From: an uncultured Candidatus Saccharibacteria bacterium
GTDB taxonomy: Bacteria; Patescibacteriota; Minisyncoccia; Phycocordibacterales; UBA2163
Reading direction: 5' to 3'
DNA length: 64,000 nucleotides
Assembly: GCA_964626705.1 (NCBI GenBank)
Contig: CAZVGL010000001.1
Span: forward strand, 87,643-151,642
Positions 7,611-32,997 of the stretch are shown here, in pieces (position 1 is the first letter of the stretch; each line of letters begins with the position of its first letter). Both the position numbers and the translations under genes were made by a program. Below the pieces are notes generated by a model. That model worked only from the letters and a program-made list of their open reading frames with translations, had not been told where the DNA came from and did no database searches.

Positions 7611-8033
7611 ATGAAAGAAAAAATTACAATCTATACAGACGGAGGCTCACGCGGTAACCCAGGTCCGGCAGGTATCGGAGCTGTAGTTTTAGGGGTTGAA
7701 AACAAGGTTTTAAAAGAAGTTTCAAAGTTTCTTGGTAAGCAAACAAATAACTATGCAGAATACGAAGCTGTAGTAGAAGGTTTGCATGCGGTTAAAAAAA
7801 TACTTGGTAAATCGCTTAAGAATTTTGATATTGAGGTAAAGATGGACAGCCAGCTTGTGGCGCGCCAGCTCTCAGGCGAGTATCAGATAAAAGAAGAAAC
7901 ACTATTTGGACAATTTATAAAAATCCACAACATGCAGGTTAAAGATTTTCCACAAATCACATTCACATACATTCCTCGTGAACAAAACAAAGAAGCGGAC
8001 AGACTTGCAAATGAGGCAATGGATAAAGGATAA
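7611..8033 (+). CDS. rnhA: Ribonuclease HI
   Basis: IYTDGGSRGNPGPAGIGAVV is the RNase H fold signature, and the DEDD residue positions are present. Confidence 0.88.
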   Translation: MKEKITIYTDGGSRGNPGPAGIGAVVLGVENKVLKEVSKFLGKQTNNYAEYEAVVEGLHAVKKILGKSLKNFDIEVKMDSQLVARQLSGEYQIKEETLFGQFIKIHNMQVKDFPQITFTYIPREQNKEADRLANEAMDKG

Positions 8034-8035
8034 AA

Positions 8036-9487
8036 ATGAAACAAAATTATTTATATATCCTGATAGGTGGGTTTGCAGTGGGTATATTATTTCGGTCATT
8101 TTTTAATCTAGGTTTATCTTTCTCAATCTTTCTAATCGCACTTTCGGGTGTGATTTTTCTTTTTTATTATTTAAATAAAAACAAAGGACAGTCCTTTGTG
8201 TGGATAAGTATCTTTATACTTTTTGCTGGTGTTGGAGTATTGCGGTTTGATGTTGCAGATTTAAATAAGGGAAGTCTTGTGCTTGATGAAGTAGTAGGAC
8301 AAGAGGTTGTGTTAGAGGGGGTTGTCGTAGATGAGCCAGATGAGAGGGAAAATAATACGAGGCTAATTGTTAATTTCATTGATACTGGTAGTAAGGCTAT
8401 TATCACAGCAGATATACACCCAAGGTTTTCATATGGAGATAAAGTGAGTATAAATGGGGAGTTATTGAAGCCTAAAAATTTTGTAGGAGAAGACGGTGAT
8501 AGTTTTGACTATGTATCATATCTTGCAAAAGATGAGATCTTTTATCAAATGTTTTATCCAAATGTTGAGCTCATCTCAAGCGGACATGGCAATATTATAA
8601 AGCGCAATTTATTTGCATTTAAGCGTGTGTTTCTGGAGAAAGTAAGTAGAGTGATTCCTGATCCGCAAAGCTCGCTTCTAGGTGGGCTGGTAGTTGGGGC
8701 AAAGCAGTCGCTTGGTGAGGAGCTCCAAGAAGATTTTAGAAAAACTGGGATTATACACATTGTTGTTCTTTCTGGATATAACGTGACAATTGTTGCAGAA
8801 GCAATAATGCGTTTCTTTTCTTTCTTGCCGTATATGTTTGGTATCTCCGTCGGGGTAGTGTCTATTATTTTCTTTGCTATTATGACCGGAGGGTCTGCGA
8901 CCATAGTCCGTGCTTCTATGATGGCCATATTTGTATTGCTTGCACGCGCTACAGGAAGGACGCAGACTATAACGCGAGCATTGTTCTTAGCGGGTTTTCT
9001 GATGCTCTTGCACAATCCAAAAATCTTAGTCTTTGATTCTTCTTTTCAGCTTTCATTTACTGCAACACTTGCGCTTATATATTTAGCACCGAAGATAGAA
9101 AAACATTTTCATTTAGTACCCACTAGGTTTCAGCTAAGAGAATTCGCAGTCGCAACAGTTGCGACGCAGATCTTTGTATTGCCGATGATTCTTTACAAGA
9201 TGGGAACGCTCTCACTCGTAGCGCTTCCGGTGAATCTTCTTATATTAGTATTTGTACCGATAACTATGCTTTTTGGTTTTGTCACAGGCATGCTCGGATT
9301 CATCTCTACAGTCTTCTCATTACCATTTGCATTTATAACAAATTTTCTACTTACGTATCAGCTTAAAGTTGTAGACATTTTCGCATCACTACCATTTGCA
9401 TCTATAGAAATAAACTACTTCCCGATATGGATAGCAGTCCTAATTTACATAATCTACGGATTATTTCTGTGGAAGTGGAAAGATTAA
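8036..9487 (+). CDS. comEC: ComEC/Rec2 DNA-uptake channel, core only (DUF4131 + competence domain, no MBL domain)
   Basis: It is a polytopic membrane protein. The conserved ComEC block LLGGLVVGAKQSLGEELQEDFRKTGIIHIVVLSGYNVTIV is present. It carries one in-frame palindromic insert at 8181-8199. Confidence 0.82.
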   Translation: MKQNYLYILIGGFAVGILFRSFFNLGLSFSIFLIALSGVIFLFYYLNKNKGQSFVWISIFILFAGVGVLRFDVADLNKGSLVLDEVVGQEVVLEGVVVDEPDERENNTRLIVNFIDTGSKAIITADIHPRFSYGDKVSINGELLKPKNFVGEDGDSFDYVSYLAKDEIFYQMFYPNVELISSGHGNIIKRNLFAFKRVFLEKVSRVIPDPQSSLLGGLVVGAKQSLGEELQEDFRKTGIIHIVVLSGYNVTIVAEAIMRFFSFLPYMFGISVGVVSIIFFAIMTGGSATIVRASMMAIFVLLARATGRTQTITRALFLAGFLMLLHNPKILVFDSSFQLSFTATLALIYLAPKIEKHFHLVPTRFQLREFAVATVATQIFVLPMILYKMGTLSLVALPVNLLILVFVPITMLFGFVTGMLGFISTVFSLPFAFITNFLLTYQLKVVDIFASLPFASIEINYFPIWIAVLIYIIYGLFLWKWKD

Positions 9488-21160: not shown

Positions 21161-21193
21161 AAACCCCGCAGGCTCAGCCTGCGGGGTTTTTGA
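21161..21193 (+). terminator. Strong rho-independent terminator directly after rpsJ
   Basis: CCCCGCAGGC-TCAG-CCTGCGGGG followed by TTTTTG. Confidence 0.85.
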
Positions 21194-24427: not shown

Positions 24428-24464
24428 CAAAAACACCGAGGTTTAACCTCGGTGTTTTTGTTTG
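24428..24464 (+). terminator. Rho-independent terminator after rplB
   Basis: AAACACCGAGG-TTTAA-CCTCGGTGTTT followed by TTG. Confidence 0.85.
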
Positions 24465-28568: not shown

Positions 28569-30884
28569 ATGAAGAGAGTTTTAATATTTTCAACATCATA
28601 TAGCCCTCTTATGGGCGGAGCGGAGGTCGCTTTAAAAGAGATAACAAATCGACTTGGATCGGAGGATTTTTGTATTACTGACACAAAGGACAGTCCTTTG
28701 TCACCACAAAGGACTGTCCTTTGTGGTGAACTTTGCTTTGACATGATTACGATGCGATATGACAAAGCTCTACCTAAGTTTGAAAGTATAGGGAATATAA
28801 ATGTACATAGAGTTTCATCTTCTAAATTATTCTTTCCATTTTTTGCATACTTTAAAGCGCTGAAGCTTCATAGGAAAAACAAATACGACATAGTATGGTC
28901 CATGATGGCAGGTAGGAACGGTTTCGCTAGTTTATTTTTCAAACTTACACATAAGAAAGTTAAATATCTTTTAACTCTACAAGAAGGAGATCGTTTAAGC
29001 TATCCAAAAGAACGTGCAGGGATTCTTTGGTTTGCAGTTGGCGGCTTGTTTAAAAAAGTTTTTACAGAAGCAGATTTTATACAGGTGATTTCTAAATACT
29101 TAGGTCAGTGGGCGCATGACATGGGGTATAGAGGTGAGATAGAGATTGTGCCAAATGGTGCAGATTTAGAAAAGTTTAAGGACGGTGACTCACAAAAAAA
29201 GAATCAAGAATTAAGAAAAGAGTTAGGGATTGGAGAAAATGAAAAAGTGATCATTACAACTTCAAGGCTTGTAGAGAAAAATGCTATCAATGACATTATA
29301 CGGACTCTTACATTTTTGCCTGATAATTATAAATTACTAATAGCTGGTAGGGGGGATCTTTTCTATGAACTTAGAAAACTTACAGATGATCTACAGCTTA
29401 CAAAAAGAGTGTTATTTCTTGGAAATATAGAACATGAGCAATTACCTCAATATTTGCACATTTCTGATGTATTTGTACGCCCATCGCTCTCTGAGGGACT
29501 TGGGATCTCGTTTATTGAGGCTATGGCGGCTTCTGTGCCTGTTATAGCGACCGAAGTAGGCGGAATCACCGATTTCCTTAAAAATGGCAAAACAGGGCTA
29601 TTTTGCGGTATCCATGACCCAAGAGGAATATCTGAGAAAATAGAGCTTTTGATGAAAGATAATACGTTACGTGAGGGTCTTATCAAGAATGCTTTAGAGA
29701 TGGTAGAGAAAACTTATGACTGGAACTTGATAGTAAAAGACATGAAAGAAAAAGTTTTTGATAAGTTTGAAGTAAGAAGAAGTGTTTTAATTACTACAGG
29801 AATATTCCCCCCAGATATCGGTGGGCCTGCTACGTATTCCAAATTGCTTTTAGATAAATTACCAAAACATGAGCTTGATGTAAAAGTGTTAAGTTTTGGT
29901 GAAGTAAGGCACATGCCGAAAATAATTCGGCATGTCGTTTACTTTTTTAAAATTTTAAACAGAAGTAGGGGTGTTGATATTATTTATGCACAAGATCCTG
30001 TAAGTGTAGGTTTTCCGTCTGCTGCTGCATCTTACGTTTTACGAAAGAAGTTTTTACTGAAAGTTGTAGGTGATTATGCATGGGAGCAGTTTAGTGTTGA
30101 AAATAATAATTTTATAACCCCAGAAGAATTTCAGAATGGAAAATATGATTTGAAAACAGAAGTAAGAAGAAAGATTGAACGATGGGTAGGAAATATTGCA
30201 AATAGAATAATCGTACCAAGTAAATACCTCAAAAAAATAGTCTCAATGTGGGAAGTGAAAGAGGAGAAGATACAAGTAATCCATAATGGTATCGTTTTGA
30301 ATAAAGATTATGGAGATAAAGAGACGTTAAGAAAGCTCCTGCAGTTTGAAGGGAATCTTATAATAACAACAGGGAGGCTTGTACCATGGAAAGGTTTTGA
30401 TACATTGATAAAAATCTTCCCAGAGATAAAAAAGAAATTTAAAGATGCTAAACTTATAATAGTTGGTTCTGGTCCACAAATGAATCATTTACAAAAACTT
30501 ATCGATGAAAAAGGCCTTGATGAAGATATAGCTCTAACTGGAAAGCTAGATAATGATTTAGTTATGCGATATAAAAAAGTTTCAGATGTGTTTGTATTAA
30601 ATACAGCTTATGAAGGTATGTCACATCATATACTGGAGGTTATGAATGTTGGTATACCCATAGTTACGACAAATGTTGGTGGTAATCCAGAACTTATTGA
30701 AAACGGAAAAACTGGTTTACTTACTGAGTATAATAATGAAAAAGAATTAGAAAAAGCTATTATAAGGTTATTAGATGATAAAGATTATGGTAACAGGCTT
30801 GCAGGAGAAGCTAAGAAAAAGGTGCAGGAGTTTAGTGAAGAAAGAATGATGGAAGAAACAGCTAATATGTTAAAAACAATATGA
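28569..30884 (+). CDS. Tandem double GT4-family glycosyltransferase (two GT-B modules, 771 aa)
   Basis: There are two EX7E-type GT1/GT4 C-terminal motifs (..SEGLGISFIEAMAASVPVIATEVGG.. and ..EGMSHHILEVMNVGIPIVTTNVGG..). A 42-bp in-frame double palindrome lies at 28683-28724. Confidence 0.8.
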   Translation: MKRVLIFSTSYSPLMGGAEVALKEITNRLGSEDFCITDTKDSPLSPQRTVLCGELCFDMITMRYDKALPKFESIGNINVHRVSSSKLFFPFFAYFKALKLHRKNKYDIVWSMMAGRNGFASLFFKLTHKKVKYLLTLQEGDRLSYPKERAGILWFAVGGLFKKVFTEADFIQVISKYLGQWAHDMGYRGEIEIVPNGADLEKFKDGDSQKKNQELRKELGIGENEKVIITTSRLVEKNAINDIIRTLTFLPDNYKLLIAGRGDLFYELRKLTDDLQLTKRVLFLGNIEHEQLPQYLHISDVFVRPSLSEGLGISFIEAMAASVPVIATEVGGITDFLKNGKTGLFCGIHDPRGISEKIELLMKDNTLREGLIKNALEMVEKTYDWNLIVKDMKEKVFDKFEVRRSVLITTGIFPPDIGGPATYSKLLLDKLPKHELDVKVLSFGEVRHMPKIIRHVVYFFKILNRSRGVDIIYAQDPVSVGFPSAAASYVLRKKFLLKVVGDYAWEQFSVENNNFITPEEFQNGKYDLKTEVRRKIERWVGNIANRIIVPSKYLKKIVSMWEVKEEKIQVIHNGIVLNKDYGDKETLRKLLQFEGNLIITTGRLVPWKGFDTLIKIFPEIKKKFKDAKLIIVGSGPQMNHLQKLIDEKGLDEDIALTGKLDNDLVMRYKKVSDVFVLNTAYEGMSHHILEVMNVGIPIVTTNVGGNPELIENGKTGLLTEYNNEKELEKAIIRLLDDKDYGNRLAGEAKKKVQEFSEERMMEETANMLKTI
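28683..28724. repeat. Two copies of the 19-bp palindrome ACAAAGGAC(A/T)GTCCTTTGT separated by CACC, in frame within the glycosyltransferase gene
   Basis: The sequence is a perfect inverted repeat with no stop codon in any frame. It encodes TKDSPLSPQRTVLC. Confidence 0.9.
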
Positions 30885-31963
30885 GAGTTTTAATGCTCAG
30901 CATAGACAAAAAAATATTTGAAGAAGAGTCTGATGCAAGAGCTCGTATGATAGAGTACGGGGAGCTTTTTGATGAGCTGCATATAGTCGTACATACGAAA
31001 AAAGGGTTTGATAATTCGCAAATATCTTCAAATGTATTTTTGTATCCAACAAACACTATGTCGAAGTTTTTTTATTTTTCTGGTGCATATAAGATATGTA
31101 AAAAGGTTATCGAAAATAATTCCATTGATATAATCACATCTCAAGACGCTTTTACGAACTTAGTTGCAGTTAGGCTAAAAAAGAAATTTAAAAATATTAA
31201 ACTTCAAGTACAAATACATACAGACTTTTTATCTAGAAAGTTTAGAAAAGAATCTATGAAGAATTTTTTTAGATACAAAGGTTATGTTAAGGGTATTAAA
31301 AGTGCAGATTACATTCGTGTAGTGTCAGAGAGTATGAAAAATAAGATAATAAGTAAGTTTGGTATAGAAACTTCAAAGATTGCTGCGCTCCCAATATTTG
31401 TAGACATAGAAAAAATAAAAAATACTACTATTACAGTAGATCTACATAAAAAGTATCCGCAGTTTGAGAAAATCATTCTGATGGCGTCTAGATTAGAGAA
31501 AGAAAAGAACATACAACTTGCAATATCTGCTATGGAAGATGTGGTAGAAAAATATCCAGAAACAGGACTTGTGATAGTTGGAAGTGGAAGTGAGTTAAAA
31601 AATTTAAAGTCTCGAGTATTAAACCTCAAATTACAAGACAATGTAATATTTGAAAGATGGCAAGATAAAGAAATAATTTATTCATATTACAAAACTACAG
31701 ACCTCTTTTTGATAACTTCAGATTATGAAGGGTATGGCCTAACTATAGTAGAAGCATTGGCTTCAAACTTGCCTGTACTTTCTACAGACGTGGGTGTGGC
31801 ACGAGAAGCTGGGGCATATATCACAGAGCGTGACAATTTGGCTCAGAATATAGTTAAATATATTGAAAGCAACCAAAAAACAGTAGAATTAACTAATTAT
31901 CCGTATAAAAACAAGCAAGAATATCTAGATAAATTTAAGCAATCCTTCATATGCGCCTTCTAA
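30881..31963 (+). CDS. GT4-family glycosyltransferase
   Basis: The C-terminal DLFLITSDYEGYGLTIVEALASNLPVLSTDVG is a GT-B motif. Confidence 0.75.
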   Translation: MRVLMLSIDKKIFEEESDARARMIEYGELFDELHIVVHTKKGFDNSQISSNVFLYPTNTMSKFFYFSGAYKICKKVIENNSIDIITSQDAFTNLVAVRLKKKFKNIKLQVQIHTDFLSRKFRKESMKNFFRYKGYVKGIKSADYIRVVSESMKNKIISKFGIETSKIAALPIFVDIEKIKNTTITVDLHKKYPQFEKIILMASRLEKEKNIQLAISAMEDVVEKYPETGLVIVGSGSELKNLKSRVLNLKLQDNVIFERWQDKEIIYSYYKTTDLFLITSDYEGYGLTIVEALASNLPVLSTDVGVAREAGAYITERDNLAQNIVKYIESNQKTVELTNYPYKNKQEYLDKFKQSFICAF

Positions 31964-32997
31964 TAGTTACACAAAAAGTAGACAAGAATGATGATAATCT
32001 TGGTTTTTTTCACCGATGGATTTTAGAGTTTGCAAAGCATTACGAGTTTATAACGATCATTGCACTTGGAGTTGGTGAGTACGATTTACCAGATAATGTT
32101 AAAGTTCTTTCTCTTGGTAAAGAGAGAGGTGCATCAAAGATAGAATATCTTATTAATTTCTATAAATACATCTGGAGTGAGCATAAAAACTACGACGCAG
32201 TATTTGTACATATGAATCCGATCTATGTAGTATTAGGCGGGCTGTTATGGAAGTCTTGGAAGAAAAAGGTAGGACTTTGGTATACGCATAAATCAGTTGA
32301 TACAAAACTTCGTATTGCAGAAGGCTGGGTGGACTATATTTTTACCGCGTCTGATAAAAGTTTTCGTATGCGAAGTAAAAAGCTGCATATAATGGGGCAT
32401 GGGATAGATGCAGACGAATTTAAAGTAAACAAAGGACTGTCCTTTGTCGCTACAAAAGACAGTCCTTTGTTAATATCTAACAAAATAAATATTTTACATA
32501 TTGGACGTATTTCTCGTTCCAAAAATATACATTTATTTGTTAAGTTTGCTGAAATACTAAAAAACAAAGGAGTAAAGTTTCAGATAAATATCGTTGGTGG
32601 TGCAATAACAAAAGAAGATAAAGGATATTTGGAAATATTACAGAAAAATATTTTAAATAAAGAGCTGGCAGAATATTTTAATTTTCTTGGACCTATGGCG
32701 CCACATGAAAGAAGTTTTCGTTTTATAGAAAATGATATTTTTATAAACCTAAGCGATACAGGAAGTATGGATAAGACGGTGCTTGAAGCAATGCTTTCTG
32801 GAATACAAGTCTTGGTGTCAAATGAAGCATTCATGAATATCTTGCCAAGTGAAAACAAAACAACAAAAGATCCAGAAAGGATCGCGAAAGATATACAGCG
32901 GATTATAGGTGTTACACCGAACCCATCTCTGCGAGGATATGTATTAAAAGAACATAATCTTAGTAATTTAATATTAGCAATAGTTAAAACATATTAA
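31951..32997 (+). CDS. GT4-like glycosyltransferase
   Basis: The C-terminal GSMDKTVLEAMLSGIQVLVSNE motif is present. A 42-bp double palindrome lies at 32438-32479. Confidence 0.65.
   Translation: MRLLIVTQKVDKNDDNLGFFHRWILEFAKHYEFITIIALGVGEYDLPDNVKVLSLGKERGASKIEYLINFYKYIWSEHKNYDAVFVHMNPIYVVLGGLLWKSWKKKVGLWYTHKSVDTKLRIAEGWVDYIFTASDKSFRMRSKKLHIMGHGIDADEFKVNKGLSFVATKDSPLLISNKINILHIGRISRSKNIHLFVKFAEILKNKGVKFQINIVGGAITKEDKGYLEILQKNILNKELAEYFNFLGPMAPHERSFRFIENDIFINLSDTGSMDKTVLEAMLSGIQVLVSNEAFMNILPSENKTTKDPERIAKDIQRIIGVTPNPSLRGYVLKEHNLSNLILAIVKTY
32438..32479. repeat. Two copies of the same palindrome family (ACAAAGGACTGTCCTTTGT, CGCT, ACAAAAGACAGTCCTTTGT), in frame within the glycosyltransferase gene
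   Basis: It encodes NKGLSFVATKDSPL. The second copy has one mismatch. Confidence 0.9.

Follow-up and report, generated by a model that had tools for sequence, protein, structure and literature searches.

A palindrome within comEC of a Saccharibacteria contig as a probable member of a REP/REPIN-type repeat family with a RAYT-like transposase in Patescibacteria

A perfect 19-nt palindrome lies in frame within comEC on a 64,000-nt stretch of DNA from an uncultured Candidatus Saccharibacteria bacterium (assembly GCA_964626705.1, contig CAZVGL010000001.1, positions 87,643 to 151,642; the whole stretch is hereafter the window). With a probability of about 0.8, this palindrome is a solo copy of a Patescibacteria repeat family of the repetitive extragenic palindrome (REP) type, which includes doublets of the REPIN type (REP doublets forming hairpins) and has as its partner an HUH/Y1 protein resembling the REP-associated tyrosine transposases (RAYTs). 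The palindrome recurs in relatives of the window's genome within the Patescibacteria, or candidate phyla radiation (CPR), where copies flank the gene for the RAYT-like protein; it can form hairpins, its arms covary, and many copies sit in frame inside genes. The RAYT would mobilise these copies, by analogy with known REP systems, and we infer that the genome of the window has, or once had, such a RAYT.

Palindromes of the window and their folding

Five sites of the 19-mer were found in the window (A or T allowed at the centre, and a one-mismatch copy at 32452 included). They lie in three open reading frames (ORFs):

8036–9487, plus strand: comEC, encoding a short ComEC of 483 aa with DUF4131 and Competence domains; metallo-beta-lactamase domain absent
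8181–8199, no strand assigned: single palindrome ACAAAGGACAGTCCTTTGT (9+1+9, perfect, centre A), REP-like, inside comEC
28569–30884: GT4 glycosyltransferase of 771 aa, with the doublet 28683–28724 in frame in the N-terminal GT4 domain
28683–28724, no strand assigned: inverted doublet, REPIN-like; copy 1 at 28683–28701 (centre A), spacer CACC (4 nt), copy 2 at 28706–28724 (centre T)
31951–32997: GT4 glycosyltransferase of 348 aa (GT348), with the doublet 32429–32470 in frame in the interdomain loop
32429–32470, no strand assigned: inverted doublet; copy 1 at 32429–32447 (centre T), spacer CGCT (4 nt), copy 2 at 32452–32470 (centre A, one mismatch)

The chance expectation for the window is 0.01 matches, and none of 100 dinucleotide-preserving shuffles reached the observed count. 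No further near-copies of the 19-mer were found in the window beyond these five sites. All five are inside ORFs, and in this respect they are not extragenic, as REPs and REPINs are by definition. Within comEC, which holds just one copy, ACAAAGGACAGTCCTTTGT encodes K-G-Q-S-F-V (peptide context ..NKNKGQSFVWIS.. / ..YYLNKNKGQSFVWIS..). The gene assignment is supported by Pfam matches to the DUF4131 and Competence domains (E = 5.8e-17 and 2.8e-48) and by 3455 homologues, of which the closest are named ComEC/Rec2 of Paceibacteria/Patescibacteria. Coordinates and Pfam matches thus agree with the initial annotation of this DNA, which had reported a single in-frame palindrome in comEC; its statement that the element extends beyond the glycan island also holds, as the comEC copy is the same 19-mer as in the glycosyltransferase doublets.

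The copies are present in independent assemblies, which excludes an assembly artefact: the protein P0001, 100% identical to the window ComEC with the motif peptide included, comes from three independent contigs, and the glycosyltransferase with the doublet is present on at least 24 contigs (JGI, ENA, Logan, and NCBI assemblies). The doublet of GT348 is missing from all 18 aligned orthologues, the closest of which (81% identical) is 9 aa shorter, so that this doublet is a lineage-specific gain. For the 771-aa glycosyltransferase, a syntenic ortholog in a relative has 737 aa.

Folded as single-stranded DNA, the ComEC singlet gives a hairpin of −6.5 kcal/mol (z = −3.4), with 8 bp in the stem and 3 nt in the loop. 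Folded likewise, the corresponding site of the orthologue P0002, which lacks the element (an ‘empty’ site), gave no significant structure. Both window doublets are inverted, as their two copies have complementary centre bases, and both have the architecture of a REPIN, that is, an inverted REP pair that folds into a long hairpin. The doublet at 28683–28724, in which copy 2 widens to a 27-nt palindrome (28702–28728), forms one 20-bp hairpin (−23.5 kcal/mol, z = −7.9), and the doublet at 32429–32470 also forms one long hairpin (−18.1 kcal/mol, z = −8.8). Tight doublets with spacers of 1–6 nt occur in eight genomes, and are inverted in seven of the eight.

The repeat family and its RAYT-like transposase in related genomes

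A database scan covering one genome per species recovered the exact 19-mer in 34 loci, and a metagenome scan added 51 loci, for 85 motif-selected loci in all. Nearly all of the 34 are from metagenome-assembled genomes (MAGs) of Patescibacteria/CPR (Saccharibacteria, Howlettbacteria, Adlerbacteria, Taylorbacteria, Minisyncoccia, and unclassified members). A dozen Patescibacteria MAGs, from several classes, contain the exact 19-mer; one MAG with the motif was labelled Pseudomonadales by its depositor. The richest four MAGs have 12, 8, 7, and 4 exact copies, over 2–7 loci each and on different contigs, in keeping with the dispersed element that the initial annotation had proposed. Single exact matches in three non-CPR MAGs (Hamadaea, Desulfobacula, and a deltaproteobacterium) are probably chance or unrelated. 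The Desulfobacula and deltaproteobacterial matches (L004:5345 and L014:827; L designates loci and P proteins) lie in homologous ORFs of ~350 aa, read ..GQ[KR]HKGQSFVFKS.., with one copy each. A scan of viral contigs gave 0 matches and so no indication of a phage origin.

At L025, seven copies of the palindrome lie around and within a 231-aa ORF that passes Pfam Y1_Tnp. Homologues of this ORF were found by tblastn beside the motif in five MAGs, and the transposase ORF is present in 17 of the 85 motif-selected loci, representing about seven lineages that are 32–100% identical. Distances are typically 13 nt from the end of the upstream motif to the start codon of the transposase, and 3 nt from its stop codon to the downstream motif. 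The encoded proteins are about 220–235 aa long, including a C-terminal extension, and the N-H-x-H (HUH) and Y-x-H-x-N-P motifs are invariant in the family alignment. Their sole NCBIfam match is REP_Tyr_transpos (NF047646; E = 1e-6 to 1e-13). An AlphaFold model of the transposase (predicted local distance difference test, pLDDT, 85.5) has 4ER8, the E. coli TnpA-REP with its REP hairpin, as its top PDB match in Foldseek (probability 1.00; template modelling score 0.60 on target), followed by the TnpA proteins of IS608 and ISDra2. Sequence and predicted structure together indicate that the CPR protein is a distant RAYT-type HUH/Y1 transposase. A TetR (CmeR) match from a single-sequence PDB search was discarded as spurious.

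Most of the RAYT-like genes examined contain a conserved internal palindrome about 170 nt in, read KYKGQSF (L025:765–783; L053, L022, L097:10171, L101:10177). In L025-type genes, the internal copy is read KY(K/R/Q)G(Q/R)(S/T)F and is a true DNA palindrome even with changed flanks (e.g., CCCCAAAGGACAGTCCTTTGGGG), and the gene ends in another copy, read TKDSPL*. These internal and terminal copies may reflect autoregulation or cis-recognition.

The association does not depend on selection of loci by the motif. In an unbiased test, three RAYT homologues were picked by protein similarity only (Paceibacterota P0336, Adlerbacteria GW2011 P0286, and Minisyncoccia P0334), and in all three a palindrome of this design is present both upstream of the gene and at its stop codon. 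The palindromes at these three loci are lineage-specific (ATATCAAGGACGGTCCTCGATAT, TGCGAAGGTCWGACCTTCGCA, and CTTCAAGGACSGTCCTTGAAG), and P0336 and P0334 (two of the three) also have one at a conserved internal site. Across eight lineages, the palindrome at the 3' end of the RAYT gene has an invariant AAGG.C.G.CCTT core and outer arms that covary. In sequence windows that were centred on the palindrome, pairing holds in 91.7% of cells (33–47% in slid controls), both partners have changed at 7 of 12 pairs, and none of 500 shuffles attains the score. The flanks of the element are also symmetric and lineage-dependent (T..A, TTA..TAA, or GTA..TAC).

Gene order around the transposase is conserved as recA-ftsK...large ORF...RAYT...rplJ-rplL-mechanosensitive channel in Paceibacterota, Adlerbacteria, and Minisyncoccia (L097, L099–L102), and rplJ-rplL is likewise downstream of the RAYT in L025. 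This conserved synteny fits the vertical, single-copy inheritance that one study describes for RAYTs (10.1101/2022.05.22.493013). No fetched locus has more than one RAYT copy, and, judged from these neighbourhoods, the CPR gene is apparently vertically inherited and single-copy as well.

Several side observations concern these loci. Loci of the more divergent RAYT type, L007:1969–3459 and L013:3397–4893, share a neighbour gene of 271/272 aa (66% identical). In L013 this gene is upstream of the RAYT and in L007 it is downstream, a hint that the REP-RAYT-REP cassette is mobile or has been rearranged locally. In Adlerbacteria GW2011, an ORF for a LAGLIDADG homing endonuclease is situated about 9 kb downstream of the RAYT (L100:19466–19909), and is possibly inside an rRNA intron, a frequent arrangement in CPR. 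The recJ/rnhA intergenic region of a Paceibacteria MAG (GCA_046757385.1; L038:280–298 and 320–338) has a doublet of another palindrome of the same design, GTAGAAGTCWGACTTCTAC, which may represent a second repeat family in that genome.

In-frame copies inside genes and the ComEC loop

The 19-mer is stop-free in all six frames, as read directly from the sequence, and gives the peptides KG[QL]SFV, TKD[SC]PL, and QRTVLC according to frame. At least 13 copies in other MAGs are well inside long ORFs, and all ten host ORFs that were tested with Pfam are bona fide genes. They encode RNase II/R, UvrC (in two MAGs), a P-type ATPase, MgsA, an O-antigen ligase, TsaD, a member of the endo/exonuclease-phosphatase family, a metallo-beta-lactamase-fold protein, and a methyltransferase. 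Elsewhere, copies are located between genes or provide the stop codon of a gene (TTG TAA). The UvrC copies form a doublet in both MAGs (L008:2563–2603 and L015:513–553), with the GIY-YIG/UVR region on one side and the RNase H-like domain on the other, and this interdomain position could be another recurrent tolerant site. Frame usage among intragenic copies is about 11 for KG[QL]SFV, about 6 for TKD[SC]PL, and 1 for QRTVLC, counts in which the copies of a doublet are not independent; the skew may reflect selection against the frame that contains Arg and Cys.

In ComEC, the motif falls in a short K-rich loop that joins the second N-terminal hydrophobic segment to the third, just ahead of the final transmembrane segment (TM) before the OB-fold. 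The initial annotation had termed this a periplasmic loop. Our reading differs: because the loop precedes the last TM before the OB-fold, and the N-loop/OB-fold of B. subtilis ComEC is extracellular according to PhoA/LacZ fusions (PMC5031224), the motif-bearing loop is, by this analogy, most likely cytoplasmic rather than periplasmic.

An orthologue alignment of ComEC, which the initial annotation had suggested, shows that the loop is variable and that the element is present or absent among close orthologues. Across 37 orthologues (59–100% identical), the deep branches all have a short basic loop at this site. Within the clade of about 75% identity and above, the loop states vary and sister taxa differ: the element is missing in P0002, P0004, P0006, and P0007; a singlet is present in the window, P0010, and P0009; and a doublet is present in P0005, P0008, and P0012. 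Further orthologues of that clade have decayed versions. On a neighbour-joining tree without bootstrap, from which the gain/loss pattern is indicative only, the site appears to have been gained, lost, or reshaped repeatedly. Symmetric variants also occur here: P0008 contains two copies of AAAGGTCAGACCTTT, and P0005 contains CAGCAAGGACCGTCCTTGCTG. When the sites were aligned by gene coordinates, pairing was kept in 93.9% of cells (35–67% in slid controls), both partners had changed at 3 of 9 pairs, and none of 500 shuffles attained the covariation score. The ComEC peptide thus changes but the palindrome persists, which implies that constraint or re-seeding acts on the nucleic acid. In ComEC itself, the short loop most likely tolerates the element as a passenger.

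A second palindrome hot spot is apparent in the OB-fold loop of ComEC in several orthologues, where CCAAGGACGGTCCTTGG is read NPRTVLGQS; further forms are TCCAAGGGTAACCCTTGGA or TCCAAGGACGGTCCTTGGA (L039:850–868, L040:1361–1379), and NPRTVLGQS-like peptides occur at this site in P0009, P0010, P0011, P0019, P0020, and P0022. The window ComEC does not have this palindrome at the equivalent place (about 8390–8410).

Other features of the window were also recorded. Immediately upstream of comEC is an RNase H gene (RVT_3/RNase_H, 7611–8033). The RNase H-comEC pairing is kept in six of the seven orthologous contigs fetched, and in L041 the pair is separated by a Trypsin_2 gene. GC-rich perfect palindromes between an A-run and a T-run at 21166–21184 (aaaccCCGCAGGCTCAGCCTGCGGggttt) and 24435–24453 (aaaacACCGAGGTTTAACCTCGGTgtttt) look like bidirectional intrinsic terminators that are unrelated to the repeat family. 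A tRNA scan of the window found none. Rfam searches (whole window at the gathering threshold; 8100–8300 at E ≤ 1) gave nothing near any gathering score.

Mechanism, alternative explanations, and known systems

By the mechanism that we favour, the palindrome, or the ~20-bp hairpin of an inverted doublet, would extrude in single-stranded DNA, where the RAYT would recognise, cut, and rejoin it, thereby seeding new copies; the analogy is with E. coli TnpA-REP and the TnpA of IS200/IS605. Copies that preserve the frame in tolerant protein loops would survive as peptide inserts (KGQSFV, TKDSPL, or QRTVLC), given the compactness of these genomes and a 19-mer that is free of stop codons in all six frames. 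The TM2–TM3 loop of ComEC would be one such tolerant site, repeatedly gained, lost, or reshaped.

A number of observations weigh against this explanation. To our knowledge, mobilisation of REPs by RAYTs in vivo has not been directly shown, even in model organisms. The NF047646 matches of the transposase score 28–51 bits, below the equivalog cut-off of 80, and profile-search matches in PDB, all of them to Y1 transposases, are insignificant (E = 0.15–0.37). No RAYT homologue was found in the 64-kb window by tblastn with seven variants (L025, L013, L022, L007, L097, L099, and L101). The genes of the RAYT neighbourhood of L097 (L10, L12, MscS, FtsK, RecA, and others) also gave no significant tblastn match in the window, which therefore lacks both the RAYT and its syntenic site. 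Around the three RAYT loci selected by protein similarity, 10 kb of sequence on each side showed no dispersed copies. The element is fully symmetric, and a conserved asymmetric flank of the cleavage type, like the 5' GTAG of E. coli, was not seen. The comEC copy of the window is not a clean insertion: it is just 2 aa (6 nt) longer than the ‘empty’ orthologues, no target-site duplication is visible against them, and the ‘empty’ site ACAAAAAAGCTTTTAT is already arm-like, containing the palindrome AAAAGCTTTT (L035:620–640). Finally, lineage-specific variants could have produced the covariation through re-seeding or gene conversion, in place of selection acting on the individual hairpins.

A broader version of the same proposal can be offered only tentatively. 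Under it, Patescibacteria would have an ancient, vertically inherited RAYT-REP system, in which stop-free symmetric hairpins routinely enter genes in frame and repeatedly rewrite loops of proteins of the envelope, DNA uptake, and DNA repair (ComEC, glycosyltransferases, UvrC, and RNase R), and in which the RAYT gene keeps its own target at fixed positions, which would suggest autoregulation or cis-preference.

Among the alternatives, the one that fares best, although improbable, is that the hairpins are selected locally (for example, as mRNA or DNA structures acting on translation pausing, mRNA stability, or replication) and spread by gene conversion or template switching at arm-like sites, with the RAYT a mere neighbour or regulator. 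Palindromy that is kept by compensatory changes speaks for this alternative, as do the ‘empty’ ComEC site that already has AAAAGCTTTT arms, the lack of a clean insertion there, and the hairpin at a fixed position within the RAYT gene. However, copies are found in unrelated genes, in three frames and both orientations, as well as in intergenic regions, and their presence is patchy among close orthologues. Moreover, this alternative does not by itself account for the close flanking of a TnpA-REP-like gene by the palindromes in many lineages.

Less probable again is that REP-RAYT-REP is an active insertion sequence (IS) of the IS200/IS605 type, and that solo and doublet palindromes are end remnants resembling miniature inverted-repeat transposable elements. 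The gene is bracketed by hairpins as by the left and right ends of IS200/IS605, IS608 and ISDra2 TnpA are among the structural matches, and in L007 vs. L013 the cassette is on opposite sides of a common neighbour gene. Yet the rplJ-rplL synteny is kept across three lineages and L025, none of the fetched loci has multiple RAYT copies, the best structural match is TnpA-REP and not an IS TnpA, and there is no tnpB among the called genes of the RAYT loci. Known members (IS608, ISDra2) share with the CPR system an HUH/Y1 transposase that reads subterminal single-stranded hairpins, but they differ in that here both flanking hairpins have the same core sequence, and hairpins are also dispersed as solo copies and doublets.

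It is very unlikely that the palindrome is a DNA uptake sequence read by the competence machinery, despite its location in comEC and its over-representation in several CPR genomes. DNA uptake sequences (DUS/USS) are non-palindromic, about 10–12 nt long, present at roughly one copy per kb, and uniform throughout a lineage. The element here is a perfect palindrome with lineage-specific compensatory variants, and its 5 copies in 64 kb are far sparser than the uptake sequences of Neisseriaceae or Pasteurellaceae; it also brackets a transposase gene, and comEC is just one of many hosts. An operator or recognition site of a dimeric DNA-binding protein (a regulator or a restriction-modification enzyme), or a chance or assembly artefact, is similarly implausible: the site is symmetric with an invariant GG.C.G.CC core, but the in-frame intragenic positions, the doublets just 1–6 nt apart, and the RAYT association are contrary to an operator, as are the independent assemblies and the low chance expectation (0.01) to an artefact.

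Three other candidates were rejected: a CRISPR array, as the spacing is irregular; an intrinsic terminator, as no T-run follows the palindrome and copies are intragenic; and a peptide motif, as three frames and both strands are used, intergenic copies exist, and the peptide changes while the palindrome stays.

Palindromic repeats that lie in frame in genes of a reduced genome, and that add peptide segments to conserved proteins, are also a feature of Rickettsia. These Rickettsia palindromic elements (RPEs) are about 100–150 bp long, and we know of no cognate transposase for them. Intragenic in-frame palindromes are common to both systems; unlike RPEs, the elements here are 19–48 nt and tied to a RAYT-like gene, and they do not belong with RPEs, which are mentioned in two studies (PMC1779305, PMC10969869).

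The closest known counterparts are the REP/REPIN sequences with a RAYT (TnpA-REP) of Gammaproteobacteria, as in E. coli and Pseudomonas (PMC3116915, PMC3337134; PDB 4ER8). In both, short palindromes are present in many copies per genome, inverted doublets yield one long hairpin, and a vertically inherited HUH/Y1 gene is flanked by the same palindromes, which covary with the transposase lineage; TnpA-REP is, in addition, the best structural match of the CPR protein. The differences are that the CPR unit is 19–27 nt and fully symmetric, with no asymmetric GTAG-like flank seen; that many copies lie within genes, in frame, instead of outside them; that the RAYT gene often contains the palindrome at a conserved internal position and terminates in another; that the hosts are Patescibacteria, with one 19-mer common to several classes; and that the protein, of about 220–235 aa with its C-terminal extension, is below the NCBIfam cut-off for RAYTs. 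Full-text searches of the literature found no paper tying RAYTs or REPINs to Patescibacteria.

REP/REPIN-RAYT systems have been described mainly from Proteobacteria, and the same logic would here extend to ultra-small, host-dependent Patescibacteria. Intergenic space is scarce in these bacteria, and the repeats persist within genes as short in-frame peptide inserts. This would explain odd recurrent peptides (KGQSFV, TKDSPL, and PRTVLG) and length polymorphisms of CPR proteins, which could be mistaken for functional motifs or alignment noise. The repeats may also serve as a marker for CPR strain typing and MAG binning. In addition, a 19-nt target, a ~220-aa enzyme, and a copy of the target within the gene for the enzyme would make a compact test system for hairpin recognition and spread by RAYTs. 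If genes are indeed routinely colonised in frame, these repeats would be a source of variation in protein loops, and not only selfish DNA.

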